Virus record (IMG/VR): IMGVR_UViG_3300046779_001955
Coordinates: 10,116-74,115 of that record
DNA from: a virus
Taxonomy: Duplodnaviria > Heunggongvirae > Uroviricota > Caudoviricetes
Direction: 5' to 3' (one strand)
Length of the DNA stretch: 64,000 bases
Below are positions 5,455 through 64,000 of this stretch, piece by piece. Position 1 is the stretch's first letter, and every line of letters begins with the position of its first letter. Under the pieces are notes generated by a model. The model was not told where the DNA came from. It saw nothing but the letters and a program-made list of their open reading frames with translations, and ran no database searches. Made by a program: the position numbers and the translations under genes.

Positions 5455-5482
5455 TACGTCTCCTTGTTTAGATAAGTAAAGT

Positions 5483-10396: not shown

Positions 10397-10663
10397 ATGG
10401 AACTTTTTATTTTATTGCTAGTGGTAATTGGAGCAGTTTGGTGGTTTACTTCGGTTGAGAACAAAGCAGAAGAATCGGGTCGTCATCCCTTGGATGGTAA
10501 TGTAACTAGACAAGAACCTGACTTAACCACAATACCTGATGGGATTGGTCATCAATCAATTACAGTTGCTCCGGTACTTACACAACAATTGGACGTACCT
10601 GCAACAGAATCAACTGCACCCAAAAAATCACGTAAACCTCGCGCTAAGAAATCAGCGGAGTAA
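10397..10663 (+). CDS. small membrane protein
   Basis: AAGGAG SD 7 nt upstream; N-terminal TM helix; basic C-terminus. Confidence 0.6.
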   Translation: MELFILLLVVIGAVWWFTSVENKAEESGRHPLDGNVTRQEPDLTTIPDGIGHQSITVAPVLTQQLDVPATESTAPKKSRKPRAKKSAE

Positions 10664-15323: not shown

Positions 15324-16074
15324 CTTGCCGGAAATTATCAAACAATTACACGACAACAATCAAGTTGAATTAGATTCTGTATTACACTGTGGTATTCCAT
15401 ACATGATGTTAGATTTACATGCACCGCGATTTTCTCGAGATCAAACTCAGAGTTGGATCAATCAGTGGTTTCATTCACAATCCACTGACCAAACTCCGGA
15501 AACAGAGTTTACAAAATTAACACATCGGTCATTTGAAATTGACAGTGAGCTCAACAAGGGTTGGAAAAGCCGTATTATATTTGGTCCAGCAGAATGGTGC
15601 GAGCATTGGCATCTTGGAACTCACGAAGATGAATATACATTAAGTATCAAGCATCGCAATGATTTTAATTTTGTTTGGCTGGTCAAAGAAAATCATCCAG
15701 TGCGCACATGGATCAATACAATGTTCACCGATGATGAATTACTCAATGTCACTGCTTGGGCGATGCCGCCTGGAGGATATTTAAATCCTCATCAAGACTC
15801 TACTACCAATCGTCACGGTATAAACAATCTTTATTGGGCTGTTCAATGGGATCCGGGTAATGAGTTTGGATTCTATCGTTTTGGAACCATACCTATCAAA
15901 GAAGGATCGGTGTGTCTGGTCAATAACTATTCTTATCCTCATTGGGTAGTCAACAACAGTAGTTCTGATCGCCTTGTATTAAGTATTGGTGCTGATCTAA
16001 ATAAAATTGAGCCTGACATTATTCGTAGTTGGCATCTGATGCATAGTCTCGGCCGGGGAAATAATCCTGCATAG
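15292..16074 (+). CDS. aspartyl/asparaginyl beta-hydroxylase-like cupin oxygenase
   Basis: NPHQDS (HxD) and YPHW (distal His); start codon uncertain (TTG). Confidence 0.5.
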   Translation: MKERYVKTEHNLPEIIKQLHDNNQVELDSVLHCGIPYMMLDLHAPRFSRDQTQSWINQWFHSQSTDQTPETEFTKLTHRSFEIDSELNKGWKSRIIFGPAEWCEHWHLGTHEDEYTLSIKHRNDFNFVWLVKENHPVRTWINTMFTDDELLNVTAWAMPPGGYLNPHQDSTTNRHGINNLYWAVQWDPGNEFGFYRFGTIPIKEGSVCLVNNYSYPHWVVNNSSSDRLVLSIGADLNKIEPDIIRSWHLMHSLGRGNNPA

Positions 16075-22884: not shown

Positions 22885-23105
22885 CAGTAGAATTGACGAG
22901 GTAATTGTTGGCTGTTGAGGTATTTCTTCCAACGAGCACGAGCAGAATTGCGCTTGATTTTTCTAGCTGTGGTAGGTTTAGTGTACTGTTGACGCTCCCG
23001 CAGATTTATCAACAGTTGCGATTCTGCAACTTTTTTCTTGAGTTTACGCAACGCTTTGTCAACATTGCCATCTTGACCCACATAAACTACTAAACCTCGA
23101 CGCAC
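22884..23105 (-). CDS. rpsU: ribosomal protein S21
   Basis: 73 aa, VDKALRKLKKKV ... RERQQYTKPT ... RKIKRNSARAR pattern. Confidence 0.85.
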   Translation of the reverse strand: MRRGLVVYVGQDGNVDKALRKLKKKVAESQLLINLRERQQYTKPTTARKIKRNSARARWKKYLNSQQLPRQFY

Positions 23106-24304
23106 TAGATGTTCTCCTTTGGTGTAGGGGTATTTACCTGGTCAAGATCAATTTCTACTAACTTTATTTCACGATCTTGATAGTGTTTTAGATTGTACAT
23201 GTGTGGCAACAAGATACGCTCTAATTCACTGTGCAAGCCCCGTGCTCCAGTTTTATTTGCTCGAGTTCTGCGAGCTATTTCTCTTAGACTTTCTGATGTA
23301 AATTTTAGTTCCACACTGTCTTGTTCAAACAACCATTGATACTGTGAAATGTAATTGTGTTTGATATCAGTGAGAATTGAAATTAATTGATCCTCATCTA
23401 GATCTGACAATGTGACCCAGCTCGGAAAGCGTCCCACAAACTCAGGAATCATACCAAACTTCATTAGATCATCAGGCACAACTTGACTTAGACTCACGGA
23501 TTCTCGTGAACCAACATCAGCGGCGAAGCCCATGGCAGTACCTTGTACACGATTCTTTACAATGGTGTTAAGCCCAACAAATGCTCCACCGGCAATAAAC
23601 AAGATATTGCGAGTGTTGATTTCAATCATTTCAAAGTTGGGATTTTTACGTCCAGCAACTGGGCTTACTCTACAGGTTGTACCTTCAACAATTTTTAGCA
23701 ATGCTTGCTGAACACCTTCTCCGGATACGTCTCTTGTGATAGATGCCGACTCACTCTTACGTGCAATTTTGTCTATTTCGTCAATAAACACAATTCCGCG
23801 TTCGGTTTTTTCAACATCACCGTTGGCAGCAATCAGTAGTCTAGATATCAATGTCTCGACATCATCGCCTACGTACCCAGCTTCGGTTATTGAAGTGGCA
23901 TCTGCAATGGCAAACGGAACATCAAGATAACGTGCCACAGTTCGTGCCAATAGAGTTTTGCCCGAACCTGTGGGACCAAGCATTAACACATTGGATTTTT
24001 CTATTTCTACGTCAGTGCTGGTATTGCTGATACGTTTGTAGTGATTGACAATTGACACTGCCAACATGATTTTGGCTTGATCTTGCCCAATGACATATTG
24101 ATCTAAAAAGTTTTTTATTTCAATGGGATCAAGCCTGCGTTGAATATCAACCTTGGGTGTTTCTACTGTGTCGTTTCCTAGCAGTTCTTGACATAGATCC
24201 ACACATTCATTGCAAATACCAACATGATCACCTACTATTAATTTTTTGACCTGATCCTTGTGCTTACCGCAAAAATTGCAGTGGTTAAATTGTTCTTGAG
24301 CCAC
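23105..24304 (-). CDS. clpX: ATP-dependent Clp protease ATPase subunit ClpX
   Basis: N-terminal C4 zinc finger (CNFCGK...CNEC), Walker A GPTGSGKT, ClpX-specific blocks. Confidence 0.95.
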   Translation of the reverse strand: MAQEQFNHCNFCGKHKDQVKKLIVGDHVGICNECVDLCQELLGNDTVETPKVDIQRRLDPIEIKNFLDQYVIGQDQAKIMLAVSIVNHYKRISNTSTDVEIEKSNVLMLGPTGSGKTLLARTVARYLDVPFAIADATSITEAGYVGDDVETLISRLLIAANGDVEKTERGIVFIDEIDKIARKSESASITRDVSGEGVQQALLKIVEGTTCRVSPVAGRKNPNFEMIEINTRNILFIAGGAFVGLNTIVKNRVQGTAMGFAADVGSRESVSLSQVVPDDLMKFGMIPEFVGRFPSWVTLSDLDEDQLISILTDIKHNYISQYQWLFEQDSVELKFTSESLREIARRTRANKTGARGLHSELERILLPHMYNLKHYQDREIKLVEIDLDQVNTPTPKENI

Positions 24305-29584: not shown

Positions 29585-29744
29585 CGTCTTCACCGCGACA
29601 TTGATGTCTAAGTGCCAGCTTTTCTTTCAACCATATCTTGCCGCAATCCGCACAACGCCAGGCGGTACCGTCGCGACTAAAAGGATAATCTCTAATAGGA
29701 TGTGATCCTTGTTTGGTTGTGATTTTTTCTATCTTGGGTTCCAT
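29571..29744 (-). CDS. 57-aa C2HC/C2H2-like zinc-finger protein (not in ORF track)
   Basis: WRCADCGKIWLKEKLALRHQC; TAATG overlap with DNA ligase stop. Confidence 0.35.
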   Translation of the reverse strand: MEPKIEKITTKQGSHPIRDYPFSRDGTAWRCADCGKIWLKEKLALRHQCRGEDDVLL

Positions 29745-31138
29745 TACAATTTTTCTCCAACATCAAACCCACGGAAGCGTACAAATCTAGGGAATCGCAG
29801 TGAGTACGATCCGTCTTGGTTCTGTGTTACTGCATCGGCTTCTACTTCAACAATCTGACCCACGATATTATTTCCATTGACATGATGATTCCAAAACTCA
29901 TCTCTATCACTATCGCTGAGGCCACTACCAACATTGACGGTAATGTGTCGCCCGTTATCGGATCCCTCGCAAACGAGAGCTCCAAGTCGTCCCAGATTTC
30001 TTCCAGTGCCTTCTTCAAGATTGACAACCTCCAAGTCTACTGTGATTGTGGGTTTCCATTTCATCCAATTACTGCTGCGTTTACATTCGTAGTGTGCTTG
30101 AAGGTTCTTAATCATAATACCTTCAAAACCTTCTGCCACAGCGTCTTGTGCAAATTTTTGCATAGTAGATTTGCCAACTGAAGTGTCAAGATCTACTTCA
30201 ATACCTGGCATTATACGAACGCTGGGATTAGAATCTAACAAAGGACGCAGCAATTCAAGTTTTTCACTGCGACGTTCTTGTGATAATTGAATCTGTGATC
30301 CTCGTTTAAATGCATCAAGTGACACCCAGTCAAACACATAAAACTTTGAATCATTGGCATTGGCATCACGTTTACGACGTGCTTGCTTCATTAGGGTTTG
30401 AAAACTTTCGCCAACAATTTCACCGTCAAGAACTATTGGTGCACCATTGGCCAGTAATCGTTTGATTTCTAGTGCGTTACCAATGAGTTGATCTTCTATA
30501 ACACTGAAGTTTTCAAAGACCTTTCCGTTGCGACTGTATAGAGTAACTGCACCGTTATTGTCAATTACAGCCAACACACGAACACCATCAAGTTTGCATT
30601 CGATTCTGGCACGACCAGTCATCTTGTTGGGATGATCTGCAGAGTCTGTGGCCAATTGACAAGTAAACACTGGTATAGCCCAGTCGCTTTTACCTAGTAT
30701 CTTGTTCAGTGTTTTTTCACTAATGCCGCAGCGCAGACCTTTGATCAATACACGACGACACATGTCATTCCACTCTTGACTATCAAATTGGCGACTGCAT
30801 TCTTCCACCATTTGGCGCATGTGATTACCAGTGACTGAACGAGTGCGTAGTGCCTCGCATAGTGCCCAGAACTGTGGCCACGGATTGGGCTGACCTACAA
30901 TATTTTCAGTTTCAGGAACCTGTTTGATATTGTAAGTGTAAAAAGGATTGTATGCAAGATAGCAATTAAACAAAAAGATTTGAGCACTAGAGCTACCTAG
31001 TTTTGCAGCCATAAAGGCTTTTTCAATAACCCGTTCTTTGTGTAAGCGGCTATCTGAGCTTTCAAGATCATGGATCCAATCAGCTGCCACCGGTACTCCG
31101 TTAAAAGAAGTGTCTTTGGGATTGAACACTTGTGCCAT
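29744..31138 (-). CDS. ATP-dependent DNA ligase
   Basis: KxDG adenylation motif (ECKLDGVRV), OB-domain C-terminal region. Confidence 0.9.
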   Translation of the reverse strand: MAQVFNPKDTSFNGVPVAADWIHDLESSDSRLHKERVIEKAFMAAKLGSSSAQIFLFNCYLAYNPFYTYNIKQVPETENIVGQPNPWPQFWALCEALRTRSVTGNHMRQMVEECSRQFDSQEWNDMCRRVLIKGLRCGISEKTLNKILGKSDWAIPVFTCQLATDSADHPNKMTGRARIECKLDGVRVLAVIDNNGAVTLYSRNGKVFENFSVIEDQLIGNALEIKRLLANGAPIVLDGEIVGESFQTLMKQARRKRDANANDSKFYVFDWVSLDAFKRGSQIQLSQERRSEKLELLRPLLDSNPSVRIMPGIEVDLDTSVGKSTMQKFAQDAVAEGFEGIMIKNLQAHYECKRSSNWMKWKPTITVDLEVVNLEEGTGRNLGRLGALVCEGSDNGRHITVNVGSGLSDSDRDEFWNHHVNGNNIVGQIVEVEADAVTQNQDGSYSLRFPRFVRFRGFDVGEKL

Positions 31139-51409: not shown

Positions 51410-52144
51410 TCACGTGGGATTCATTAAGAAAATACATTGGCCCGTGGCAATTGCGCTGGTATTTGATCCACCATAGGGGTTGGCACTTTGTGTTTTTTGC
51501 AGGGCCGAAGTTGGAGTAGTAAAGTTGCCGGTGTAGACTGCAATGTTGGATACACGGAAATTTGTGATATCTCCGCCAAACTGTTCACTGGCTAGGCCGC
51601 CAGCGGCCTTGCCGCCAATATAGAATTTCTGAGTGCCACCGGTGATGTTAGTGGCGTTGGCCACTCCGCCAAATGCACTAATCAAAGTACCATTTTTGTA
51701 CAAATTAAGACGACTAGAAGCTCTTACTAATGCAAAGTGTACCCACTGATTTTTAAAACTACCTAGTATACCAATACCCATATTGACGAGTGTGTTGGGG
51801 CTGAACCATACATAAGGATTAGTACCTTCTAAACTAATACCTTGCACTGGGTAGTTTACCCCTGTGGTATTGCTTTGCCAGTACACTCGAGGAAATGCGT
51901 TTGAGTCCGTTTCATATTGAAACCACTCCACAGTAAAATTGCCAGTACCAAAACTCAACCCACTATAGTTTTCATAGTAAACATAACTGGTCGTTGCACC
52001 GGTAAATCTATAACTGCTGCCTGACCCAAATGGCGATGTTGATACCACAGTTGCATTACTGACCGCTGTGGGAGTATCGTAAGGGCTTGCAGGAACCGTG
52101 TCCTGTATAGTCACACCTTGTAGATTTACACCTTGAATCAGCAT
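51410..52144 (-). CDS. structural protein with concanavalin/LamG-like composition
   Basis: 244 aa; Gly/Thr/Asn-rich beta-sandwich-like pattern. Confidence 0.45.
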   Translation of the reverse strand: MLIQGVNLQGVTIQDTVPASPYDTPTAVSNATVVSTSPFGSGSSYRFTGATTSYVYYENYSGLSFGTGNFTVEWFQYETDSNAFPRVYWQSNTTGVNYPVQGISLEGTNPYVWFSPNTLVNMGIGILGSFKNQWVHFALVRASSRLNLYKNGTLISAFGGVANATNITGGTQKFYIGGKAAGGLASEQFGGDITNFRVSNIAVYTGNFTTPTSALQKTQSANPYGGSNTSAIATGQCIFLMNPT

Positions 52145-54042
52145 TAGTTGTTACGAGCTCGATTTGTAGCAGTAAATCCGCCAGGTAGTCTGTTCACTGC
52201 TTTGGCATACCCTGCGGGTGTGGCCATGACCCAGCCTTCTTGTCCGGGATGTTGTAGATCCAACTGATGTAGTATGTCCATTTTTAAATCATGCAATAAT
52301 AACCAAATACTAAATGCTGCTGACAATGCTTCGGCATTGCTCTTAGGGCTTTGTAGATATTCTACAATATTGGCATACTTGCGCGGTGTCACTGTTGATT
52401 GTAGCCAGTCGCTAAAACCACCAACAAGATTGCCAAAGCCACGACCCACACGGCTATTGATATAATCCACGCAAAGCTTGGCTAGATCTGTGATCTGTTG
52501 TTGACGCAGTTCAACTGGATTAAACAGTTGATTAATTTGTTGACCGTGTTGCGCAATCAACTGACGAATCTGTTGACCCATATCACGATTTGCCTTGATA
52601 TTTGTACCAGCAATGGGAGGAATCAATAACAAGCCAGGCACTGGTTTGAATTTAATTCCATTGATGGGTTGTTTGGCCGACCCTTGGTCAGCATACATTG
52701 TATGCATGGCAATAGCAGTGTCGGCCCCGGCAATTTGTTGACCAAGCGCACTGTTTAAAGGAATTTTATATTCCACAGTGTTGGGTGTGAATACTGCAAA
52801 GCCGTGATCTTCGTGCCAAGGTTGCTGGGGATAGAACAACAAGTCGCCTTTGACATATCCACGCTGTGACTTTGGAAATGCTGCTTCTAGCTTGGTCCAT
52901 AAGTCTAGATAAATTGGAGCCAGAGTTTCCACACGATTTGCCATGTTGCCTTTGACTCGAGCTGCATCATCTCTGCGTTGCATGTCTTTGGAAATGGCTC
53001 TAGGTGATGTAAACAATCCATCGTAGGTCTTGGCATCAAAACCTGACCCGTCTGTGAGTACAAACTCTCCGGTGCTGGGTTTACGTCCAAAAACCACAGC
53101 GGGCTTGCCATCCCATTTAACTGTAGTGGTTGCGGGATCTTGTGCGGCTGCGGCAATGATTTTTAGTGCTTCATTGGCTCCTGCAGTGCCACGGCGGAAC
53201 ACTAAATCTTCAATGTGCTCAATGCCTTTGGCACGGCCACCAACATTTTCAGTTTCGGGTATAAAACGATCTTCTACCAAGGCCATCATGCCCTGATTAA
53301 CAATGCGATCCCGCAGACGTGCAATAAAACTCACATCACTTTCCTGCACCTGCCCTGGTGGTGTGAGCCCGTCGCGAGCTAGATATTGTTCAAAGTCTGC
53401 GACCTTGGCAGCACGATCTTTGTCACGGGCCAACGCAGCATAGATAGATTCAACATTCTTTAAGTTTTCTCTTGTGGCACGTGGTCCCAACAGCATACGA
53501 GCTGCTTCGTCAGGATCCATTGTGACAACATTGTTGGTAGTACGCGATGCCACACCATTGCTGCCAATCTTCAAACCCAATTGCTTGGCCACTGAACTCA
53601 TTAAGATGTTGCGATATACACCTTTGTATTCCGAATCTTCGCCGCCAGCATAAAAGAATGTGCCCCAATCTAGATTAGGAAAAAACATAAAATCAGTCTG
53701 CACATAGCCTTGATCGGGTCTACCAGCAATGGGAGTGCGCAAATGAACTTCACCTTTGCTGCGGATCCAATCACGAGGTTCTAATCGATGAGCCTGTGCC
53801 CAATGGTTTAATTTTGCCACCAACTGTTCTTTGGTTACTTCGCTGAGATCAACTGCTAGATCAAGATCTCCGGAATCAGGTCTACGTCCGGTAGATCCCA
53901 ACCAACGTTCTTTGGGGAAATCAATACCGGTTACTTGTTCTATCCATTTAATGGTTGTGGGAATATCGGTTTGGCGAATACGTCCAGTGAGAGGATTTCC
54001 GTCACCATCTTTGAAAACATTACCACCTTCGTTTAGATTCAT
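52144..54042 (-). CDS. large protein with nucleotidyltransferase-fold-like motif
   Basis: start at MNLNEGG (TAATG overlap with upstream gene); GSTGRRPDSGDLDLAVD resembles GS-x9-DxD NTase signature. Confidence 0.45.
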   Translation of the reverse strand: MNLNEGGNVFKDGDGNPLTGRIRQTDIPTTIKWIEQVTGIDFPKERWLGSTGRRPDSGDLDLAVDLSEVTKEQLVAKLNHWAQAHRLEPRDWIRSKGEVHLRTPIAGRPDQGYVQTDFMFFPNLDWGTFFYAGGEDSEYKGVYRNILMSSVAKQLGLKIGSNGVASRTTNNVVTMDPDEAARMLLGPRATRENLKNVESIYAALARDKDRAAKVADFEQYLARDGLTPPGQVQESDVSFIARLRDRIVNQGMMALVEDRFIPETENVGGRAKGIEHIEDLVFRRGTAGANEALKIIAAAAQDPATTTVKWDGKPAVVFGRKPSTGEFVLTDGSGFDAKTYDGLFTSPRAISKDMQRRDDAARVKGNMANRVETLAPIYLDLWTKLEAAFPKSQRGYVKGDLLFYPQQPWHEDHGFAVFTPNTVEYKIPLNSALGQQIAGADTAIAMHTMYADQGSAKQPINGIKFKPVPGLLLIPPIAGTNIKANRDMGQQIRQLIAQHGQQINQLFNPVELRQQQITDLAKLCVDYINSRVGRGFGNLVGGFSDWLQSTVTPRKYANIVEYLQSPKSNAEALSAAFSIWLLLHDLKMDILHQLDLQHPGQEGWVMATPAGYAKAVNRLPGGFTATNRARNN

Positions 54043-54791
54043 TATTTGGTTCCTGTTGGCGGTGGTGTTTGTGCTGGTGGTGCACCACCAGCCACGGGTC
54101 CAGCTGATGTTCTCAGCAATCCTAGTCCTGCCAACAACGCATTGACAGCTTGATTGTTTGTGGGTGCGACCTGTTGATTTTGTCCTGCCGGCCATTGCTG
54201 TTGTAACTGAGCAATCTGTGGAGCCATACGTTGCATCATGACCTGAGATGCTGGAGTCAACTGTGGAGATCTAGATGGGTTGTAAACCTGACTCACTGTG
54301 GCCGCTTGAACATTTTGCACAAGACTTTCTAAATGATGTGCAACAAGATTGTTATCTTCGGTCTTGGTCCCGGACACAATACCACGAATATCTGCTTGCA
54401 ATGCTGCTTTGTTTCGCTTTGGCAGGTTATTAACTGCGTCTCGGCCAGCAAACAGTCTAGTATTAATATAATCAGTCAACATTGATGTCAGTGCAAAAGA
54501 ACTTAATTTGCTGGGACTATCAACTTTCATTTGTGCCATTTTAGACGCTACTATACTAGCCCAGGCTGCCATTGCTGCTTCAAGCTGCTTGGGCTGCAAG
54601 GGTTGTAGGAGCTGCTGAGCCACTTTTGCTTCCTGTCCCGACGCAGCCTGTGGAGTTTTACCTGTGATGGCTTGTCCGGCTATGCCTGCCAGTGCGCCAC
54701 CTATTGCTCCCCAGTTGACCTCACTAATTGGTTTCTTTTTGCTTTGGGTAATGTCAGATATTTGCATCAGTTTTCCTAACGGTCCTAACAA
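54042..54791 (-). CDS. Gln/Ala-rich hypothetical protein
   Basis: 249 aa; low complexity. Confidence 0.5.
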   Translation of the reverse strand: MLGPLGKLMQISDITQSKKKPISEVNWGAIGGALAGIAGQAITGKTPQAASGQEAKVAQQLLQPLQPKQLEAAMAAWASIVASKMAQMKVDSPSKLSSFALTSMLTDYINTRLFAGRDAVNNLPKRNKAALQADIRGIVSGTKTEDNNLVAHHLESLVQNVQAATVSQVYNPSRSPQLTPASQVMMQRMAPQIAQLQQQWPAGQNQQVAPTNNQAVNALLAGLGLLRTSAGPVAGGAPPAQTPPPTGTK

Positions 54792-55002
54792 ATTTATTAG
54801 GATCTTTGAATTTTATAGCATTTAAAAATTTTCTCTGTAGATTTTCTGCTTGATCAGCAGGAAAATCCTGTTCAATTTGTTCAAATAATCTAATAGCTGA
54901 TTGAATAATGTTGTCAGCGCGATTTTCCAGCACATGCTTGCGATCGCGATCAACATACATCGAGTTCAATTCTTCAAGAATACTACGTGTCTTTTTTTGC
55001 AT
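54754..55002 (-). CDS. hypothetical protein
   Basis: 82 aa. Confidence 0.45.
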   Translation of the reverse strand: MQKKTRSILEELNSMYVDRDRKHVLENRADNIIQSAIRLFEQIEQDFPADQAENLQRKFLNAIKFKDPNKFVRTVRKTDANI

Positions 55003-55066
55003 TATACGCGACCTTTAGATTATTTATTAATTTTTGGGGTTTGGGTTGGCATCAAATATTTAAGGA

Positions 55067-55891
55067 TTGTCCAACACTCATTTAAATATCAATTCAATGA
55101 GCCAGCCCACAGAAAAATTACACCAGATAAATGATCCGTATTTGCAATCCCTACGCTATAACTGGTACCATAATTCACAGCAGCCAGTTGAAAAATCTCA
55201 ATTTGAACAGGCGGCCAGTGACTGGTTTTTGAGCTCAAAAATCAATAATCTCAACGGAACCGATCAGTTTGCCTATATTGACACTATTCTGGGCTGCACA
55301 CACTATATTGACAGTTTATTGATCAAGCACGGTCGTAATATACAAGTCCTCCCCGGGGATTATCGATATTACAGCTACATGGGCATTCCGCACACTGAAC
55401 CTGGAAATCTAGTGCCTGGTGTTCCTTTGGTTGTTAGTTTACCCAATTGGTTTTACACTGACATAAGACCTGATTGGTTTCAAGTACTGCTAGAATGCGA
55501 ATCCAAGAACATTGACATACACATCGATATGGCCTGGATGCCAGTGTGTAGGGACATTAATTTAAACTTAGATCATCCCTGTATCAAATCATTTGCTATG
55601 AGTCTCAGCAAATACAGCATGGAATGGAACAGGATTGGTTTGAGATGGAGTCGCAGCAGAACCATGGATTCTATCACTGTGTTTAATCATTATCAAGGAG
55701 ATGTTAACCAGAGTGTGATCAGCTGTGGATACTATATTGTCAATAATCTTGCTAGAGATTATGCCTGGGACACATATAGATCCAAACATTTTTCAGTGTG
55801 CCAGGAACACAATCTTGAGCCCAGCCGAGCCATACACGTTGCCTATCAAGGATCAACGCCGGTGGGCATTGCCGGTCTACTGGTCCAATGA
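55067..55891 (+). CDS. hypothetical protein (plus strand)
   Basis: 274 aa; convergent overlap with following gene. Confidence 0.5.
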   Translation: MSNTHLNINSMSQPTEKLHQINDPYLQSLRYNWYHNSQQPVEKSQFEQAASDWFLSSKINNLNGTDQFAYIDTILGCTHYIDSLLIKHGRNIQVLPGDYRYYSYMGIPHTEPGNLVPGVPLVVSLPNWFYTDIRPDWFQVLLECESKNIDIHIDMAWMPVCRDINLNLDHPCIKSFAMSLSKYSMEWNRIGLRWSRSRTMDSITVFNHYQGDVNQSVISCGYYIVNNLARDYAWDTYRSKHFSVCQEHNLEPSRAIHVAYQGSTPVGIAGLLVQ

Positions 55892-56454
55892 GCGTACAAA
55901 CTGTAACGGTTTACACCAGCAGGAACTGGTGTAGTGGTTTGATGTTGGACGTTATGGCTAGTACAGATATATCCAAAATTATGAAAAAAACCAACAACGT
56001 ACCTGGCTCCGTTGACAAAGAATGTTGTGCCACAGCTACTAGGCGCATCAAACAAATAGAGCTGTAGACTGATGTCAATCACAGGATTATCAGTGTGTGG
56101 GCCAAAGTAATACCCTTCGGTATCACGCCAAATCTGAATTCCAGCAAAATTTAATTGTCGTTGAAACTGTTGTTCAAGCTGGGATGTTACCGAAGCGCAC
56201 ACATCATGCAACTCTTCTATTACTGAATCAGCGTCCCAGGTTATCTTATGCCTGGGCATTGATTCTTGTCCCGAGACCAGGGTCCATTGCTGTGGATCAG
56301 ACTGATCAATATAACTTTCAAGTTTGTCTAAGATATCCTCGGTCACAAAGTCCTTGACTATCCAAAGATTTGGAACTAGTGTGGGGGCAGCTTGCTCGGA
56401 AGACAGGCGGGCGCGGCGGCAATTTTTTTCAATTAGATCATAATCAATCATCAA
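55846..56454 (-). CDS. prolyl-4-hydroxylase-like 2OG-Fe(II) oxygenase
   Basis: GPHTDNP (HxD) block and distal His. Confidence 0.55.
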   Translation of the reverse strand: MMIDYDLIEKNCRRARLSSEQAAPTLVPNLWIVKDFVTEDILDKLESYIDQSDPQQWTLVSGQESMPRHKITWDADSVIEELHDVCASVTSQLEQQFQRQLNFAGIQIWRDTEGYYFGPHTDNPVIDISLQLYLFDAPSSCGTTFFVNGARYVVGFFHNFGYICTSHNVQHQTTTPVPAGVNRYSLYAHWTSRPAMPTGVDP

Positions 56455-56516
56455 AATTATTTAATAGAAATTTTATTGCAGTTAAATATCTGCCCAGGCA
56501 TTTATATAGGCACATT

Positions 56517-58226
56517 ATGGCACACTCAGACTTAGAACAAATTCAATTACTCATGGCCCAATTTCGTAGGCCCTGCCCCGAAGATCTAGAATATCAAGAC
56601 CGACTGGTTGAAGAATTTGGTATTATAATTGATCGACGATTCACAGACTATTTTTTAAAAATACGACAGATACTAGATTTAAATTCTGATATACCTCACA
56701 TGACTCGAGGATCAGCGGGATCTAGTCTTGTATGTTACTTAATGGCAATAACTGATGTTGATCCCATTGAGTGGAAAATTCCGTTAGCACGTTTCTTAAA
56801 TCCTTTCCGCGACGATTTACCCGACGTAGACATAGATGTTCCGCATCACAGTCAAGAACGAGCTATGCAACGTATATTTGATGCATGGCCTGGGCGCACT
56901 GCACGTATATCAAACTATGTGATGTACAAGGAAAAATCAGCACGTAGAGAAGCTGCAAAGAGATTAGGTGCACAGGGTAGATTACCTAGAGACATTGATT
57001 ACAAAAAATTAGGCATTGATGTTGAAGAAGCCCAGCGTATAGAAAAAAAACTAATGGGCAAAAAACGTTGCTTGTCAAAACACTGCGGTGGCGTGATTGT
57101 GTTTGATCGTAAACTACCGCAGAGTTTATTTCGTGATGATAATCTCATCTTGCTGGACAAAAACGAAGTGGAAGATCTTGAACACCTCAAGGTTGATATT
57201 CTAGCAAATCGTGGACTTAGTCAACTCATGGAGATTGACCCTACTCGTAGAGTACACGAATATCCCATGGAAGACGATCTAACCTCTGAACTACTGAGTC
57301 AGGGCAATGTTTTGGGTGTGACTCAAGGAGAGTCCCCGGCCATGCGTAGATTGTTCAGAGCAATAAAACCAACTTCGGTACACGACTGCGTGTTTGCCAC
57401 TGCACTTGTGCGTCCGGTAGCTATTGAAGGACGAAAAAAAGCTTCTTGGTTTCACGACTGGACAGCAACCGGAGTCCGAGAACATGCTATTGTATGCGAA
57501 GATGATGCCATAGAACGCATCATGAAATTGATTGGTGTCAACGCATATGAAGCTGATATGTATCGTCGAGCCTTTGCAAAAAAGAACGAGGAAAAGGTCA
57601 TGGAGTTTATGGCACGCTTGGGCGATCATCCTGAACGAGATTCCATACAAAAAGAAATGCAGAATCTAGCAGGGTTTGGCCTTTGTCGAGCTCATGCTGT
57701 TAATCTTGGTAGATTAATCTGGGCATTGGCCTATCAAAAAGCACATAATCCTAGAGAGTTTTGGAGAGCTGTGTTAAAACATTGCCAGGGATCTTATGCT
57801 AAATGGGTCTATCGTAACGAAGCCAAGCGAGCTGGATGGGATCTACGTGATCTTGGTTTTTCAAATTGGATCATAGAAGATCCAATCCAAGCGTTTAAAG
57901 ATTACGGGGCCTGGAACACACCTGGATTTCTACCTAACATGGGAGTGCAAGGTCTTTATCTTGACAGATATGAATTTGCTGGCATAGTGGCAAACTCCCG
58001 AGTGTTCAAACGCGATCGCCAACAGTATATACATTTTATTACACTGGGAGTAGGCGAAGGTGAATATGTAGATTTAATCGTAGACCGTCCTGTGAAATAC
58101 AGTACGGGCAGTGTGATTATAGGTCAGGGCGAAATAAAATCTCGTGATGGCAGTCAATTTTTACAAGTGGATCGGAAAAATATCAAGGCCGTGGATATTG
58201 ACGACTACTTCAAGGTGTCTTTTTAA
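56517..58226 (+). CDS. minimal DnaE-like (Pol III alpha family, C-family) DNA polymerase, copy 1
   Basis: TRGSAGSSLVCYLMAITDVDPI, PDVDIDV catalytic Asp pair, RAHAVNLGRLIWALAYQKAHNPREFW fingers block; start at MAHSDLEQ; no PHP or C-terminal OB domains. Confidence 0.85.
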   Translation: MAHSDLEQIQLLMAQFRRPCPEDLEYQDRLVEEFGIIIDRRFTDYFLKIRQILDLNSDIPHMTRGSAGSSLVCYLMAITDVDPIEWKIPLARFLNPFRDDLPDVDIDVPHHSQERAMQRIFDAWPGRTARISNYVMYKEKSARREAAKRLGAQGRLPRDIDYKKLGIDVEEAQRIEKKLMGKKRCLSKHCGGVIVFDRKLPQSLFRDDNLILLDKNEVEDLEHLKVDILANRGLSQLMEIDPTRRVHEYPMEDDLTSELLSQGNVLGVTQGESPAMRRLFRAIKPTSVHDCVFATALVRPVAIEGRKKASWFHDWTATGVREHAIVCEDDAIERIMKLIGVNAYEADMYRRAFAKKNEEKVMEFMARLGDHPERDSIQKEMQNLAGFGLCRAHAVNLGRLIWALAYQKAHNPREFWRAVLKHCQGSYAKWVYRNEAKRAGWDLRDLGFSNWIIEDPIQAFKDYGAWNTPGFLPNMGVQGLYLDRYEFAGIVANSRVFKRDRQQYIHFITLGVGEGEYVDLIVDRPVKYSTGSVIIGQGEIKSRDGSQFLQVDRKNIKAVDIDDYFKVSF

Positions 58227-59619
58227 GTTGCCCAAGTAATTGCTTTAATTTTGCACTTTGTACGTCTATTGAAATTTTTCCCGGTTCGTCTGCTACAGTA
58301 GCAGACTCTGTGTCGGGGGTGAGTTGACTCTTTGCCTTGATTGATTCATAGATGTTGGGAACATGTTTTTTAAACTCTTGATAATCTTGATCTTCAGCTA
58401 AATCAACAATTCTCATGGTCTCAATATTGTACTCTAGATCAATCTTTTGTCCTACGCCAGTAGAACTACGCGATTTCATACATTGTATTTGATATTTGCC
58501 ACGCTCTCGCATGTTTCTAGAAGTGAAGATGCCAAACACATTGTCAGCTGTGTTGATCTTTGAAATACCACCGGAAATATGCGAGTGATCAAATTCAACT
58601 TCTTCCACAGCAGATCTATTCAACTGTGATGCAGTGACCATCAGTATGCCTAGTTCTTTGGCCAGGTTACGCAGCTCTTCACTCACATACTTGTCCTTGA
58701 CAAACAAGTCATTGGGCGAAACCTTGGCACTTACCGGCATCAACAGATCTAAATAGTCAATCATCATGAAATCAACTTTGTGCCCAGTTTGGATCTGATA
58801 TTCTTTTAGAAAACTGCGTATGTCATTGATATTACTTTGCGCTGGCAATGCTTTGACCTGATAGCTGCCGGCTTTCTTGCTCACCATTTTAACTTTGAGT
58901 GCAGCAGTTTCTTTGTCGCGGCGGATGTCTTTGGTTGACATATTTGTCAACATTGCAGTGGTACGCAATCCCGTGAGCTCCTGACTAAGTTCCAGTGTGA
59001 TGTAAACACCATGAAGACCTGCCTGTACCCAGTTCAATGCAATGTTCATCATCACTAGCGATTTACCAGATCCTGAACCACCAGCAAAGATGTTGAGTTC
59101 ACCTCTGCTGAATCCACCGTACAACAGTTTGTCCATTTGCGGCCATCCTGTTGACACTTGTCCACCAGAATCAAAGTAGCGTTTAAGCATGCCTTCGGGA
59201 TCCTCCCAGAAGTTCATGCCTAGATCCTTGGTTAAACTAATTTGCACAGCATCCTTTATGAGCTTTTCTACAGGATCATATTCACCCTTTTCAATCATGT
59301 CTGCGGCTTTGAGGATAGCACGTTCTAGTTCCTGCCGTTTGGTAAACGATTCAAACTCTTCAAAGAACCACTCAAAATGTCCGTCGCTGATGTCGGGAAT
59401 TGAATTTAATGTTATGCCAGTGACCGCAGCAATCTGTGTTCGATCAGGCATGGTATGATACTGATCAGTATGTTGTTTGATAAACTCAGCTGCTGGGCGT
59501 AGACTTTTTTCAAAGTTTGCTGGATTGTAGATATTTTGTACGCGAACATAACTGCTGGCATCTTCCAGCATCATTTCTAAAAACAATCGTTGTACGTCTT
59601 GGTTATAATTTTTAATCAT
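58210..59619 (-). CDS. DnaB-family replicative helicase
   Basis: Walker A GGSGSGKS, RecA-like C-domain; start at ATG 59619. Confidence 0.9.
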   Translation of the reverse strand: MIKNYNQDVQRLFLEMMLEDASSYVRVQNIYNPANFEKSLRPAAEFIKQHTDQYHTMPDRTQIAAVTGITLNSIPDISDGHFEWFFEEFESFTKRQELERAILKAADMIEKGEYDPVEKLIKDAVQISLTKDLGMNFWEDPEGMLKRYFDSGGQVSTGWPQMDKLLYGGFSRGELNIFAGGSGSGKSLVMMNIALNWVQAGLHGVYITLELSQELTGLRTTAMLTNMSTKDIRRDKETAALKVKMVSKKAGSYQVKALPAQSNINDIRSFLKEYQIQTGHKVDFMMIDYLDLLMPVSAKVSPNDLFVKDKYVSEELRNLAKELGILMVTASQLNRSAVEEVEFDHSHISGGISKINTADNVFGIFTSRNMRERGKYQIQCMKSRSSTGVGQKIDLEYNIETMRIVDLAEDQDYQEFKKHVPNIYESIKAKSQLTPDTESATVADEPGKISIDVQSAKLKQLLGQLKKTP

Positions 59620-59629
59620 ATGAGACTTT

Positions 59630-60304
59630 TCAAATATAATTATCCAGTTTCTGTAGACAATGATTGGCAAACAGTGTCTGTGCTTCATTGCTAGCAACGT
59701 GGAACAGTGGAGCGTTATTTAAGCTTTGATGATACCAGAGGTTAATAGATATTTCGTTGTTATGATAATCAGCGATGATGTTTTCTATAAAGTTTTGTCG
59801 TAGATTTTGATGCCAATCACGACGATACTCAAACCCACCAAGACTATAGACAAATTTTAATTTGTTGATCTGTGCTGTTTGCAAACAGAATGCAATTAAA
59901 AAATAATCTTTTAACCACTCAAAACTTTCACTTGCAGCCAACGTGCGCCATCGATCTATAGCATCAAGCCGAGTCTTGTCTACAACATTTATAAAACTGT
60001 TGGTAATCCAACGTTGTTTTTGAAAGTCAGCTAATTCTGCTGCTGTGATGGCTTTTGGTATGGCTGTGGTATTGTGATCTAATTCGTAACGTCCTTCGGT
60101 AGTAAAAGAAAAAATCACAGCATCAGGTTTTAATTGTAGACCTTGTAGTAGTTGCATGGCAATCATTGCATTGCTTGCCCCACCAGCAGCTAGATTACAC
60201 AGCTCAATGTCAGCACTGTGATTGAGTATTTTTTCACTCCAATGCAGTTCCGGATAGTCAGGATCTGTTATAGCAAAACTGTCGCCACACACCAGTATTC
60301 TCAT
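59630..60304 (-). CDS. SGNH/GDSL hydrolase
   Basis: N-terminal VCGDSF block; sits between primase and helicase genes. Confidence 0.6.
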   Translation of the reverse strand: MRILVCGDSFAITDPDYPELHWSEKILNHSADIELCNLAAGGASNAMIAMQLLQGLQLKPDAVIFSFTTEGRYELDHNTTAIPKAITAAELADFQKQRWITNSFINVVDKTRLDAIDRWRTLAASESFEWLKDYFLIAFCLQTAQINKLKFVYSLGGFEYRRDWHQNLRQNFIENIIADYHNNEISINLWYHQSLNNAPLFHVASNEAQTLFANHCLQKLDNYI

Positions 60305-61284
60305 CGTATTTTCTTTTGTAATTGTTTCTTTGCCAATTCAATGTGCAGTCGACTGTGATGTCGTGCTTGCAATATTGTCAACAATGTGGTAAGTCTTCCC
60401 ATACGGCACACAGCATCATTGATATCTTTGACACCTTCAGGCCAGTTGGGAACACTCACACTCCAGCCCAACTCCAGAGCACGATCAATTAAACTGATAC
60501 CTGAGCGATCTTGATCAGGTACCACAACAACTTCTCGGCCTAGACTGCGGATTAGTCGGACCTGAGCATCGTTGATTTCGCTGTGCAGCACTGCTAGTCC
60601 CGATATGCTCAAGGCATCAAACACGCCTTCGCATACAATTGCATATTGCCAATTGGCTTTTTGCAGGTCTGTGCCAAACACATAGCCTGATTGTATTTCA
60701 TTGATGTATTTTGGTATTTTACCATCTAAGAATCTGCAACTGTAACCAACAATGGTATTGTCATGGGTAAATGGTATGACAACGTGCGGTCGGGTCCAGT
60801 GAACGCCATCGTTGTTGGGCTGAATCATTATGGGATAATCACTAGGTATACAGCGATGTCGTACATAGTCTTGATACTCAGGATATTCATCTGTGAGCAA
60901 TTCAGCAAACGCCGGCAACTCTCGTTCATCAAATTTTATGTCAGCAACAGAATTAAATGTACGCTGCCGATCATTTAATATCCCTTCAATGCTGCGATGT
61001 CGCATGCTTTCAAGATTTAATTGATTAATTTCCTCTTCGGGAACATTAAACCATTCCAATAGCTTGCGAGCTCGGTAAGTTAAATTTCTGCCTAGAATAA
61101 AACTTGCAGTATAGTTACAATTAAAACAATGATAGCTCCAGCCCTGCTCTGACACTTTGATTCCGCCGCGACTACGCCGATCCTGACTGTGACCGTTGTG
61201 AGTGCAGCACACCGCATTGAAACTTATCCAACCCGAACTAGAAGTTTTTCGGCGTCCACCAATGTAACCAAGTATGTCTAGCAT
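60301..61284 (-). CDS. DNA primase (zinc-ribbon + TOPRIM, T7 gp4 N-terminal type)
   Basis: CCTHNGHSQD ... CFNC zinc ribbon; CEGVFDALS TOPRIM. Confidence 0.8.
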   Translation of the reverse strand: MLDILGYIGGRRKTSSSGWISFNAVCCTHNGHSQDRRSRGGIKVSEQGWSYHCFNCNYTASFILGRNLTYRARKLLEWFNVPEEEINQLNLESMRHRSIEGILNDRQRTFNSVADIKFDERELPAFAELLTDEYPEYQDYVRHRCIPSDYPIMIQPNNDGVHWTRPHVVIPFTHDNTIVGYSCRFLDGKIPKYINEIQSGYVFGTDLQKANWQYAIVCEGVFDALSISGLAVLHSEINDAQVRLIRSLGREVVVVPDQDRSGISLIDRALELGWSVSVPNWPEGVKDINDAVCRMGRLTTLLTILQARHHSRLHIELAKKQLQKKIR

Positions 61285-61982
61285 CTTGTTATTATAGCAG
61301 ATTCAATGTGTGAAATCAAGATATCTGCTATAATTTGATGTCCATGTTCGTTGGGATGACGTTGTGGTGCCCAGCAATTGGAATGGGAACTCAATAGAGT
61401 CCTAAGATTGGTATCAGGAAAGATCAGGCTTTTACAATCAAATTGTGGATAACTTTTTAGGATATTAAATTGTAACAACGGTTGTCGATACCGTTGGCCA
61501 TCAAAAAACATCAAGGCCTGTTGATAATTGTTTTCCCAAAGAGCACGACAGTCACTTTGAGCTGTGTAGTATTTGGTTAACTGGTGCCAGGCATCTTGGT
61601 AGCACGTGGTGTTGTGTACCCAGGCGCTGTGTACATATCTATTCCAAGGTGGATCGTTGACATGCTGTACATGATTGGGATTATACCAACTGCTGCGTGA
61701 TGCATCAGTTAGTCCAACTAAAATCAAAGTATTGGCATGATCGGCGTGATTATTAAACCACCAAAGATAGTTCCAAATAGTGCTTTGAAGACTGCCTCCG
61801 GGTATGGCAAAATTTTTTACAGGTACATCAAAGTGTTTTCCAATTAGCCCAACAAAACACTGAGATTCTCTATAGCTGGTGTTTTCTATGCTGTGTGGCA
61901 ATAAATTAGATTGTTTGGGGTCAACTAATTCGTCACCCCAAACCCAACTGTCGCCAAACGCTGCGATGCTGGTGAACTTCAT
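61278..61982 (-). CDS. SGNH/GDSL hydrolase paralog
   Basis: AFGDSWVWG block. Confidence 0.55.
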   Translation of the reverse strand: MKFTSIAAFGDSWVWGDELVDPKQSNLLPHSIENTSYRESQCFVGLIGKHFDVPVKNFAIPGGSLQSTIWNYLWWFNNHADHANTLILVGLTDASRSSWYNPNHVQHVNDPPWNRYVHSAWVHNTTCYQDAWHQLTKYYTAQSDCRALWENNYQQALMFFDGQRYRQPLLQFNILKSYPQFDCKSLIFPDTNLRTLLSSHSNCWAPQRHPNEHGHQIIADILISHIESAIITRC

Positions 61983-63061
61983 TAACGATAGGTAATTTGT
62001 TCAATGACGCCAGGGACTATGGTAACTGTGGCTGCTTGCTGACTTGGAGGCACAGGACTGTATCCTGAACCACCATTGAGCACTGTGACGTTAGTGACCG
62101 CACCACTACTGTTGATGTTGGCCACAGCCGATGCTCCGGCCCCGGCACCTACTATTATCACCAGGGGTTCGGCTAGATAACCTGATCCTGCATTGAGAAT
62201 GTTGACGTTGGTCACTGCACCGTTGCTGACTGTAGCGTTGGCTAGAGCAATTGTAGCTCCGTTTACACCACCGTATTGGTTGATTGCTACTCTAAGCAGA
62301 TTGTAGTTGCCTTGCACTGTGAGATTGATGTTGCTGGTATTGGCATAAAATGAGTAGTTGGGACTCACATCGAACCAAACACTTTCATAATTTTCGGCTG
62401 CTTGAATTTTAATGTTGCCAGTAAAAGTATTGGCTTTCAATACAAATGTACCAACTGCTGTGGGATTACCATCAACATAGCTAGAATAGGTTTCACTGTA
62501 AGTAGCCGGCATTGACTGCTGCGGCAGTGCCCAGTCTGGTCTTGTGGTGTAGGGTTGCGAAGCCGGGTAATCACCAGGACCGTACATGGTAGGAATAGTC
62601 ACTGTTCGGCTTGGTGCAAACTGCGGGTACGTAGAATCTAAGATATAAGCCACACCCCTACCATTGGCACCTTCGTCGGTGAATACTGACTGCGTGAGAT
62701 TTCCCGATGATCTAGTAATGCTATAGCTACATGTCTGCGCATCAATAAGGTCAAGATCAGCTTCGGGTATAGTGACTTTGATACGCCCGTATGTTGCGCT
62801 GAGAATTTCCATAGTGCCGCGATATATTAGTGCTGCACCATCTTGACTTATCAATTGAAAAACAAATGTGCTGCCAGTGACATTCACTGGTTTTTGGTCT
62901 TGATTAAACATTTCAAACAAGAGAACGTTGTCAACGCCTTTGTTTATGGTAATAGGTTTTGAATACACTGGATCCCACCTCGCTGTGAAATAAGCACCAC
63001 TGGTGTCAATCAATAAAACCGGGTAACGCTGTTGATATAAATACGCCGTGGTTGAATACAT
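61982..63061 (-). CDS. structural protein with internal tandem Ig-like repeats
   Basis: GAVTNVNILNAGSGY / GAVTNVTVLNGGSGY repeat. Confidence 0.5.
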   Translation of the reverse strand: MYSTTAYLYQQRYPVLLIDTSGAYFTARWDPVYSKPITINKGVDNVLLFEMFNQDQKPVNVTGSTFVFQLISQDGAALIYRGTMEILSATYGRIKVTIPEADLDLIDAQTCSYSITRSSGNLTQSVFTDEGANGRGVAYILDSTYPQFAPSRTVTIPTMYGPGDYPASQPYTTRPDWALPQQSMPATYSETYSSYVDGNPTAVGTFVLKANTFTGNIKIQAAENYESVWFDVSPNYSFYANTSNINLTVQGNYNLLRVAINQYGGVNGATIALANATVSNGAVTNVNILNAGSGYLAEPLVIIVGAGAGASAVANINSSGAVTNVTVLNGGSGYSPVPPSQQAATVTIVPGVIEQITYR

Positions 63062-63082
63062 AAGAATCTCCAGCTAATATTT

Positions 63083-63460
63083 ATGGGCAGCGACTTTTTT
63101 GCAAAATTAGCTGAAAAATACCCGTTTATAACGTTGTGCGTCTACGCCAGCAACGAATATGTGGGTATAATTCAGAATCGTGACGAAACAATTACCACCA
63201 TCTATGACTTTGGTAGTCTCAAAGATCTTGAGCAAAAACAAAGATTTTTGGATCTTGCCAATGTTTGGTGGTGGGAAAGCAATAGATCAATCCCGATTAA
63301 TATATTCTTGCGCGGGGACTGGGACGAATTTAGAATCAGTTTGCGTACTTTCATCAACAGAGATCTTGAAATAATACACGGCCCTGTGTGCAGTTTACTT
63401 GACATTGCCAAGAAAAAAACCAAACGTAAGTCAATTACTCTGGTTCGCCGTATTGATTAA
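63083..63460 (+). CDS. hypothetical protein
   Basis: 125 aa. Confidence 0.45.
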   Translation: MGSDFFAKLAEKYPFITLCVYASNEYVGIIQNRDETITTIYDFGSLKDLEQKQRFLDLANVWWWESNRSIPINIFLRGDWDEFRISLRTFINRDLEIIHGPVCSLLDIAKKKTKRKSITLVRRID

Positions 63461-64000
63461 ATTCATGTGCAGTGTGACCAAAACTGCATAACTCACAGCA
63501 TGTGCTTTTTTAAAGCTATAACCGTCGGCTGCGGTATCCCATACTGTAACAGCAACTTCCTTCCAAGTTTGCCCAATCAAATGACGTTTGCCCGGGCGAA
63601 TAACAGCTAAAAACATTGCCATTCTAGCAATTGAATCCACAGGCTCTGGCATCTTTAGCAAGGTTTCATAATGATTGCCAATGTGTACAATCTGTTCAAC
63701 AAACTCAGAATCTTGCAATCTTGACCATGGTGGCTCCATAGACAACAGTTCTTGGTAGTGTTCTTGATCCCGAATAGCTTGATATACCGACATATTAAGT
63801 AAATCAAGTTTGAAGTATCCACGTTGTTCGGCTTCTTGATAATCAATTGCTGCGCATTGATTGATCGGATCCCAGGGCACATCTGTGACATACACACCAG
63901 AATTGTGTCTACGTATTTCGCCTTGGTGCCGTTGCATAGCCGGCACAGTGTCAATGAGTTCTAAAACTTTGGTTCGATCTGCAAAGTCTATGTCAATGTC
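63431..64000 (-). CDS. DnaE-like polymerase copy 2 (partial, continues past window end)
   Basis: reading frame open to 64000 with DIDIDFADR catalytic block, RHNSGVYVT and KAHAVSYA fingers motifs. Confidence 0.75.
   Translation of the reverse strand, partial: DIDIDFADRTKVLELIDTVPAMQRHQGEIRRHNSGVYVTDVPWDPINQCAAIDYQEAEQRGYFKLDLLNMSVYQAIRDQEHYQELLSMEPPWSRLQDSEFVEQIVHIGNHYETLLKMPEPVDSIARMAMFLAVIRPGKRHLIGQTWKEVAVTVWDTAADGYSFKKAHAVSYAVLVTLHMNLINTANQSN

Follow-up and report, generated by a model that had tools for sequence, protein, structure and literature searches.

The window analysed here is a 64,000-nucleotide (nt) stretch of DNA, positions 10,116 to 74,115 of the IMG/VR virus record IMGVR_UViG_3300046779_001955 (Caudoviricetes), and the subject of this work is the group of replication genes at its right end, from 56,517 to 64,000. 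A plus-strand gene for a DnaE-like DNA polymerase of 569 amino acids (aa), here called copy 1, converges on a minus-strand series of genes which encodes a DnaB-family helicase, a primase and, at the edge of the window, a second C-family-polymerase-related protein, here called copy 2 (Table 1). The original prediction, made from the sequence alone, described a replication module with two paralogous minimal DnaE-like polymerases, in which primase and helicase were split by SGNH hydrolase genes. The six open reading frames (ORFs) that it named were all present at their coordinates and strands, and the occurrence of two C-family-polymerase-related genes in one replication block was borne out. The region probably represents a conserved replication block of an uncultured jumbo phage, containing a complete compact DnaE-like polymerase together with the C-terminal unit (C-unit) of a DNA polymerase III (Pol III) alpha that is split over two genes.

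As predicted from its sequence, copy 1 is a genuine, complete and self-contained C-family (DnaE-like) polymerase, with palm and fingers and without a PHP domain. It matched Pfam PF07733 (DNA_pol3_alpha) over residues 23–230 with 136.7 bits (cut-off 23.9, E = 1.5e-39) and PF17657 (DNA_pol3_finger) with 52.6 bits (cut-off 22, E = 4.5e-14), could be aligned over the whole of palm and fingers (E ~1e-25) with the Pol III alpha of Taq, E. coli and M. tuberculosis, and matched the full-length phage DnaE family phrog_405 at 8e-61. Residues D103, D105, D107, D227, R299-P300 and the C/K-x-H-A fingers motif were invariant in 27 diverse homologs with identities down to 28%, the catalytic aspartates being D103, D105 and D227. 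Because the palm match already starts at residue 23, copy 1 has no room for a PHP domain; Pfam gave no PHP match in copy 1 and no match at all for the upstream ORF at 55067–55891, so that the absence of this domain stands as originally predicted. Among the NCBIfam DnaE models copy 1 could be placed at the superfamily level only, with the DnaE2/ImuC model NF004225 as the best (158.9 bits against a cut-off of 939). A DnaE2/ImuC identity was rejected, as this score falls far short of the cut-off and was scarcely above those of the other DnaE models. Close homologs were 565–572 aa long, bar one entry of 538 aa, and the start of copy 1 was therefore placed at the ATG at 56517. At its 3′ end the gene converges on dnaB, which it overlaps by 17 nt.

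The claim that copy 1 also lacks a C-terminal OB domain is probably wrong. Its AlphaFold model, built from a shallow alignment, was poor overall, but residues 476–560 were predicted as a beta domain with pLDDT (predicted local distance difference test) values of 74–92, and Foldseek matched the model first to Pol III alpha and then to the OB folds of SSB, Stn1, RPA and Teb1 with a probability of 1.00, indicating a likely C-terminal OB fold. Copy 1 ends ~10 residues past this OB-like domain, leaving no room for a tau-binding domain. The tail itself (window 58195–58226) reads ...DIDDYFKVSF, and its Y564 is nearly invariant among relatives of 79–93% identity. Being acidic and aromatic, it presumably recalls the clamp-binding tails of T4- and RB69-type polymerases, and by its composition it could be a clamp-binding peptide.

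Copy 2 is not another full-size polymerase cut off by the window edge, but the C-terminal unit of a split minimal Pol III alpha. Group 2.2 jumbo phages have been described to encode a phage-specific minimal Pol III alpha consisting of an N-terminal NTP-binding unit and a C-terminal Mg2+/template-binding unit (Iyer et al. 2021, Viruses 13:63, PMC7824862), with the two units encoded by distant genes alongside a family B polymerase (PolB) (Iyer et al. 2021, PMC7824862). The frame of copy 2 is open to the window edge, beginning with DIDIDF, and had been described as running beyond it. However, the full sequence that the original prediction called for was found in a protein of just 200 aa (P0001), identical to copy 2 over the 189 visible residues and carrying DIDID at residues 12–16, so that only 11 codons of copy 2 lie outside the window; the gene upstream of it on its contig, called at 378 aa, is unrelated. 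At least 7979 homologs of copy 2 were detected, and all of the 120 listed were 179–203 aa long (nearly all 186–203). They also occur in cultured large phages, including Atu_ph07, Phosso, PA5oct-like phages and others. In Phosso and PAC2 (PA5oct-like) the homologs are genes of 192 and 200 aa, respectively, starting a few codons ahead of DIDID, and in Atu_ph07 the annotated start of the coding sequence (CDS) lies 22 codons downstream of the point where the copy 2 match starts.

The assignment of copy 2 to Pol III alpha was supported by sequence, profile and model. Copy 2 matched phrog_11778, annotated as 'DNA polymerase', at 7.5e-59, and its fingers segment matched two families of full-length DnaE, phrog_405 (1.9e-6) and phrog_11165 (2e-5). 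Its AlphaFold2 model reached a pLDDT of 85.7, and the ten best Foldseek matches in the PDB were all Pol III alpha (probability 0.57–0.97), followed by noise. In hhalign against a profile of diverse compact DnaE proteins, C-unit residues 41–148 were placed on copy 1 residues 187–301 (97.3%, E = 2e-11). Copy 2 gave no match in Pfam, and its family profile searched against PDB sequences returned only M. tuberculosis DnaE1, with the motifs in the same order and a non-significant score (E = 2.1). Copy 2 has the DxDxD strand, a KLD that provides the third catalytic aspartate, and RPG and FKKAHA as its fingers motifs, and across 39 sequences of the family D12, D14, D16, K75, D77, R146-P147, and K175 and H178 of F-K-K-x-H were invariant. 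This invariance of catalytic and fingers residues indicates that the gene is under selection rather than a decaying fragment. Hence the palm DxD and fingers motifs noted originally in both copies are real, while the supposed second minimal polymerase is a half-enzyme of 200 aa; it is a fragment in that sense and not a pseudogene.

Direct comparison of copies 1 and 2 by BLASTP, phmmer and hhalign with shallow alignments (≥58–79% identical) gave nothing beyond the DxD motif, and a relationship could be detected only with more diverse profiles. The two thus appear as distant members of one superfamily, and are neither recent paralogs, as the word 'paralogous' had implied, nor halves of one gene. 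The partner of copy 2 appears instead to be a distinct family of ~170 aa proteins (N-unit) and not copy 1. In phage Paride this family is represented by Paride_0087, a 169-aa protein annotated as 'DNA polymerase' with the C-terminal end '...WGVGRGSSVASYVLFLIGVHKVDSLKYNLDIKEFLK', which matched phrog_11127 at 6.6e-46 and the full-length DnaE family phrog_405 at 3.6e-7. The family comprises 5542 homologs, and the 120 listed were 169–182 aa long, all with PF07733. By hhalign, N-unit residues 88–171 were placed on copy 1 residues 15–95 (96.8%), and the DIDID of the C-unit corresponds to copy 1 residues 103–107. As the N-unit match ends at residue 95, the cut must fall between the GRGS loop/helix and the metal-binding strand of the Pol-beta-like palm. 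Together the two units cover the polymerase core, with only the segment from DxD to the third aspartate shortened.

From sequence and fold, the C-unit holds the three carboxylates and the fingers residues that contact the deoxynucleoside triphosphate, and the N-unit holds the GRGS loop. The enzyme is thus cut inside the Pol-beta-like palm: the helices and the GRGS nucleotide-binding loop come from the N-unit, and the DxD strand comes from the C-unit, along with the third aspartate and a reduced form of the fingers. It is reasonable to suggest that the two would assemble into one active site. The N-unit gene may lie elsewhere in the genome, near the clamp-loader gene as in relatives; in Paride it is found 43 kb from the C-unit gene, just upstream of the clamp loader, and in locus L183 it is also in a clamp-loader neighbourhood. 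Copy 1, which lacks the PHP proofreading or pyrophosphatase domain, would be a self-sufficient polymerase without proofreading.

The window in reverse is collinear with Paride 15–52 kb. The gene order common to both runs from the C-unit through the convergent small ORF, primase, DnaB and a PD-(D/E)XK exonuclease to the large and small subunits of ribonucleotide reductase, and continues with a PAAR protein, a ClpX-like ATPase, a ligase and a protease. This collinearity identifies the source as a jumbo phage related to PA5oct/Paride, Atu_ph07 and Phosso, the last two of which also have the C-unit neighbourhood of the window, and the phage is placed with the 'group 2.2' phages of Iyer et al. (including Atu_ph07) and the PA5oct/Paride-like phages. 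A megablast of the region against phage genomes found no close cultured relative. Clamp and clamp-loader genes, which the original prediction proposed to look for, are absent from the window: PHROG and Pfam scans of ~50 of its other ORFs gave no PolB, clamp, clamp loader, separate PHP or exonuclease subunit. The clamp loader is present in Paride, where it is encoded, like PolB and the polymerase exonuclease subunit, outside the stretch collinear with the window. The Paride PolB is annotated as two CDSs (Paride_0110 and Paride_0112; L099 37883–43109, equal to Paride 87883–93109), with a homing endonuclease gene between them. By analogy with these relatives, a family B polymerase of the T4 type, together with a clamp and its loader, could be the main replicase, and for that reason the C-family enzymes are considered auxiliary; they might extend primers on the lagging strand or take part in repair synthesis, a tentative role.

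The presence of copy 1 beside dnaB is specific to a large uncultured clade. In Paride, dnaB is directly followed by the homolog of the window ORF at 54754–55002, and at this junction the window has 3.2 kb of extra DNA, made up of copy 1 on the opposite strand and two ORFs. Copy 1 is absent from the dnaB site in L007, L010, L012, Paride, Phosso and Atu_ph07, all of which have the C-unit; the latter is far more widespread than copy 1. The copy 1 family nevertheless counts more than 100 cluster representatives of 79–93% identity on contigs of up to 192 kb; identity was 76–93% on many contigs, with four outlying loci at 61–64%. Across 80 IMG/VR loci copy 1 lies between a DUF6267 gene and dnaB on the strand opposite dnaB, the sole exception being L098, with dnaB upstream and on the same strand, and it is directly convergent on dnaB in about half of the 80, with at least one gene between them in the rest. 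Copy 1 and the C-unit were found together, 3.6–7.6 kb apart, in all 18 loci that extend 9 kb or more on the downstream side.

More widely, compact PHP-less DnaE-like proteins of ~540–600 aa form dozens of clusters at 50% identity, whereas the DnaE proteins checked in cultured phages were full length (1135 and 1161 aa). The only full-length counterpart of copy 1 in the phage collection searched was a 574-aa protein (37% identity) of the uncultured 484-kb phage LR756508.1. That homolog (in locus L006, 39382–57040) is not adjacent to dnaB, and by eye the nearby ORFs include putative ones similar to a translation GTPase of the EF-G type and to a TnpB/Cas12-like nuclease. Between dnaB and the Paride_0022 homolog lies a variable slot (window 55003–58226; L014 11697–12809; L016 11690–14598), and on other contigs its cargo is, for example, a radical-SAM gene or an ORF of 274, 278 or 341 aa. 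In the window it also contains the mutually overlapping ORFs 55067–55891 (+) and 55846–56454 (−). The DUF6267 protein (683 aa; 52144–54195, −) is encoded 3.6–5.9 kb from copy 1 in most of the related contigs that reach that far and nearer in a few; its 'KWDGKP' motif looks, by eye, similar to the nucleotidyl-transferase lysine motif in ligases.

According to Iyer et al. (2021, PMC7824862), Pol III domains beyond those of the split enzyme do not occur in the phages that have it, and the clade of the window is an exception to this rule. New here is that a large uncultured clade consistently keeps a compact and complete DnaE-like polymerase together with the split enzyme, a finding of modest novelty.

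Several other explanations for the pair of genes were considered. The original idea of two paralogous complete minimal polymerases, which would form a heterodimer or share out leading- and lagging-strand synthesis, could draw on the DxD and K/RxHA motifs in both genes and on their co-occurrence in all 18 sufficiently long related contigs. It is nonetheless very improbable, because copy 2, at just 200 aa, is missing the entire N-terminal part of the palm that binds the nucleotide, a part supplied by a dedicated N-unit family, because the copies have no pairwise similarity, and because the C-unit is spread far more widely and also occurs without copy 1. That copy 2 should be a decaying fragment or pseudogene, or that both copies should be halves of a gene split by an intein or intron, is hardly credible: the abrupt beginning of copy 2 at the catalytic motif might suggest it, but length is nearly constant among the listed homologs and the catalytic residues are invariant, copy 1 is complete alone on the other strand 5 kb away, and Pfam scans gave no intein-family match for either gene. 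There is only a slight chance that the N-unit has been lost in this clade and that copy 1 replaces it or partners the C-unit. Copy 1 has a complete active site of its own, the C-unit keeps all residues that are invariant in clades without copy 1, and with the N-unit more than 40 kb away in relatives its absence from the window is expected; these points outweigh the strict linkage of the two genes and the failure to find an N-unit in ~75 kb of the genome.

A larger role for copy 1, either as the main replicase having displaced PolB or as a second true replicase beside it, is unlikely. Its conservation (79–93%, and above that of the C-unit on the one contig pair compared, 84% versus 70%), its place adjoining dnaB and primase, its probable OB fold as in cellular DnaE and a tail that could bind the clamp would be consistent with such a role. 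On the other side, it lacks a proofreading domain and no exonuclease gene adjoins it, the rest of the window is collinear with relatives that encode PolB, and copy 1 sits on the opposite strand in a variable slot, as accessory cargo typically does. In a related and likewise unlikely, if somewhat less remote, scenario, the clade would have up to three polymerase systems (PolB, the split Pol III alpha and the 569-aa DnaE), with the compact DnaE as a true replisome component; if true, this would be the smallest natural C-family replicative polymerase and a test bed for the minimal needs of a C-family replicase.

The combination of a split Pol III alpha with an auxiliary compact DnaE remains the preferred interpretation, and a number of points weigh against it. 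Searches of the window and its flanks (7.3 kb on the left, L182; 4.2 kb on the right, L004) with a motif regular expression, phmmer with the copy 1 N-terminus and the Paride N-unit, and the hidden Markov model A5 detected no N-unit and no match other than copy 1 itself; this absence is expected because the gene is >40 kb away in relatives, and its presence in this genome is assumed from co-occurrence at the family level. The 80 IMG/VR N-unit loci have no contig in common with the copy 1 loci, and in none of them do window genes follow one another in collinear order, single ORFs matching at 68% identity or less; the 122-kb contig of P0294 shares with the window a deaminase as the sole gene. As the window encodes neither PolB nor a clamp or clamp loader, relatives are the basis for the auxiliary role proposed for the C-family enzymes. 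The OB assignment of copy 1 comes from one confident sub-domain of a poor model (pLDDT 51), with no matching sequence family, as the C-terminal domain gave no sequence match in Pfam or PDB. Finally, a search of a literature library for experiments on the split enzyme or on phage DnaE without PHP gave no biochemical data for either and only Iyer et al. 2021 and Kazlauskas & Venclovas 2011 as related papers.

Table 1. Genes of the replication block at the right end of the window
Feature	Position	Strand	Basis
Copy 1, complete compact DnaE-like polymerase (predicted), 569 aa	56517–58226	+	Pfam, PDB, PHROG and NCBIfam matches
DnaB-family replicative helicase, 469 aa	58210–59619	−	Pfam DnaB_C, phrog_19
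ORF with SGNH-like motifs, 224 aa	59630–60304	−	Motif blocks only
DnaG/TOPRIM-type primase, 327 aa	60301–61284	−	Toprim_2, phrog_47
Probable divergent SGNH/GDSL-like hydrolase, 234 aa	61278–61982	−	Sub-threshold Lipase_GDSL
Virion-protein-like, 359 aa	61982–63061	−	BppU_N below cut-off, PHROG matches
Conserved ORF, function unassigned, 125 aa	63083–63460	+	phrog_11637
Copy 2, C-unit of split Pol III alpha, 200 aa in full	63431–64000	−	phrog_11778, model, profile match

Around the C-unit, the neighbourhood is conserved. The 125-aa ORF, which matched phrog_11637 at 1.6e-30, is convergent with the C-unit gene, the 3′ end of which it overlaps by 30 nt, a position and orientation kept in every relative examined (Paride_0018, Atu_ph07 gp073, Phosso 438 and all metagenomic loci), and this conserved pairing suggests a functional link. 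A conserved C2H2 zinc-finger protein (CRYCEKEF...HLC), lying just beyond the window, is encoded two genes upstream of the C-unit in L004 (2119–2832) and directly upstream in PAC2, and further coordinates for such a gene near the C-unit are L003 5310–5981; the protein is 31% identical to the Paride gene at that position. The 359-aa ORF has a BppU_N-like N-terminus (Pfam 4.7e-4, under the cut-off) and two Ig-like 'GAVTNVxxLNxGSGY' repeats, and matched PHROG families of baseplate and virion structural proteins at 1e-10. Within the block this ORF is conserved, and the Atu_ph07 and Phosso genes at its position are annotated as virion structural.

The helicase matched Pfam PF03796 (DnaB_C) with 77.2 bits (cut-off 27), phrog_19 at 7.6e-68 and, under the cut-off, TIGR03600 (phage_DnaB) at 4e-21, and is 47% identical to Paride_0021. 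The primase, a homolog of Paride_0020 with an N-terminal zinc-ribbon-like Cys/His cluster, matched Toprim_2 with 27.9 bits (cut-off 22.1), phrog_47 'DNA primase' at 7.4e-37 and the TIGR01391 dnaG domain at 1.4e-10. The original prediction was right that the two genes are separate, but this is not unusual, as the annotations of Paride, PAC2 and Phosso likewise list primase and helicase as two genes; the Atu_ph07 record names no separate primase, but a 341-aa gene upstream of its helicase matches the primase of the window. With two separate genes and another ORF between them, a fused T7 gp4-type primase-helicase was rejected, and the primase described as T7-type is instead a stand-alone TOPRIM/DnaG-type enzyme in the pattern of T4 gp61/gp41. 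T4-type phages encode helicase and primase as separate adjacent genes. As in T4 gp41/gp61, a DnaB-family helicase and a TOPRIM primase are separate genes in the window and in the annotated relatives, and the window differs from the T4 arrangement by the extra SGNH-like ORF inserted between them.

Both ORFs described originally as SGNH/GDSL hydrolases do have GDS-type motif blocks, while their library matches are sub-threshold in one and lacking in the other. The 234-aa ORF scored 16.7 bits against Lipase_GDSL (E = 0.0084, cut-off 23.6; best homolog 1.5e-4), and its family has conserved block I GDS, block II PGGS and block V HPNExGH, with no block III asparagine conserved in a five-sequence alignment. 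The three best PDB matches of the family profile were GDSL proteins with non-significant E-values of 0.08–1.1, and the ORF lies upstream of the primase in 29 related loci. Judging from these motifs, it is probably a divergent SGNH/GDSL-like hydrolase. The 224-aa ORF found no match in Pfam, PHROGs or NCBIfam. It has the motifs VCGDS, GGAS and HNNE and could be aligned with the other SGNH-like family through the motif blocks only, a BLASTP comparison of the two ORFs being non-significant. An ORF of this kind (SGNH_A-like) was present in 6 of the 80 related loci, and occupied the slot between primase and helicase only in L049 and probably L047; L007 has a positional equivalent of the 224-aa ORF that is alike through motif blocks only. 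The ORF between primase and helicase is thus a sporadic local insertion, and the separation of these genes by an SGNH gene does not hold as an organising feature of the block.

Elsewhere in the window, a ClpX-like ATPase (zf-C4_ClpX and AAA_2) was found at 23105–24304, and two ClpP/prohead-protease-like genes, which may be paralogs, at 4867–5511 and 7045–7611. A UvdE-type UV-damage endonuclease (10652–11674, −; Pfam UvdE 3.6e-26, phrog_8420 5e-69) and an ATP-dependent DNA ligase (29744–31138) are also encoded, and could be repair functions which a polymerase without proofreading might serve. The ORFs at 12173–13189 and 16019–17281 (−) both match phrog_25854, function unassigned (2e-20 and 5e-12), and form an apparent duplicated pair. 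Dense head-to-tail arrays of small minus-strand ORFs (60–130 aa) occupy 25.9–29.7 kb and 32.4–36.2 kb. No tRNA genes or Rfam matches were found in the whole window, and a scan for promoters and terminators gave a signal no higher than the shuffled background.

Iyer et al. (2021) have already published the split mini-polymerase; the window leaves its definition as it was, but confirms the enzyme independently and maps its cut point. With an active site divided between two genes, the split minimal Pol III alpha is among the oddest predicted polymerases, and its coexistence with other polymerases raises the question of how two or three of them divide the work. Furthermore, the compact family of ~540–600 aa is attractive as a source of a small C-family polymerase for biochemistry.

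In comparison with bacterial DnaE-type Pol III alpha (E. coli, Thermus aquaticus and M. tuberculosis DnaE1; PDB 2hnh, 2hpi and 5lew), copy 1 has in common the palm and fingers, with the three catalytic aspartates and with RP and R/K-x-H-A as motifs of the fingers, and probably the C-terminal OB fold. Unlike these enzymes, it has no PHP domain and no tau-binding C-terminal domain, its stretch from the DxD motif to the third aspartate is shorter, it is about half their size (569 aa versus ~1160), and it scores far under all NCBIfam DnaE, DnaE2 and PolC equivalog cut-offs (at best 158.9 bits versus 939). The full-length phage DnaE proteins of Streptomyces phage Ejemplo (gp52) and Rhizobium phage RHph_N1_15 (EVB78_086) are 26–27% identical to copy 1 over palm and fingers, but at 1135–1161 aa they start ~320–350 residues ahead of the core that copy 1 matches. 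This N-terminal region of full-length phage DnaEs is the PHP domain, which occurs throughout viral C-family polymerases (Kazlauskas & Venclovas 2011).

Compared with the split Pol III alpha of Iyer et al., copy 2 is likewise a stand-alone protein of ~200 aa with the DxD motif at its start and its end just past K-x-H-A, and it is 41–45% identical to the proteins of Atu_ph07, Phosso and PA5oct-like phages. Its neighbourhood is also that of the split-enzyme phages, with the C2H2 protein upstream, then the convergent small ORF, and then primase and DnaB downstream. Unlike the phages of Iyer et al., the clade of the window adds to this split enzyme a complete C-family polymerase with a probable OB fold.

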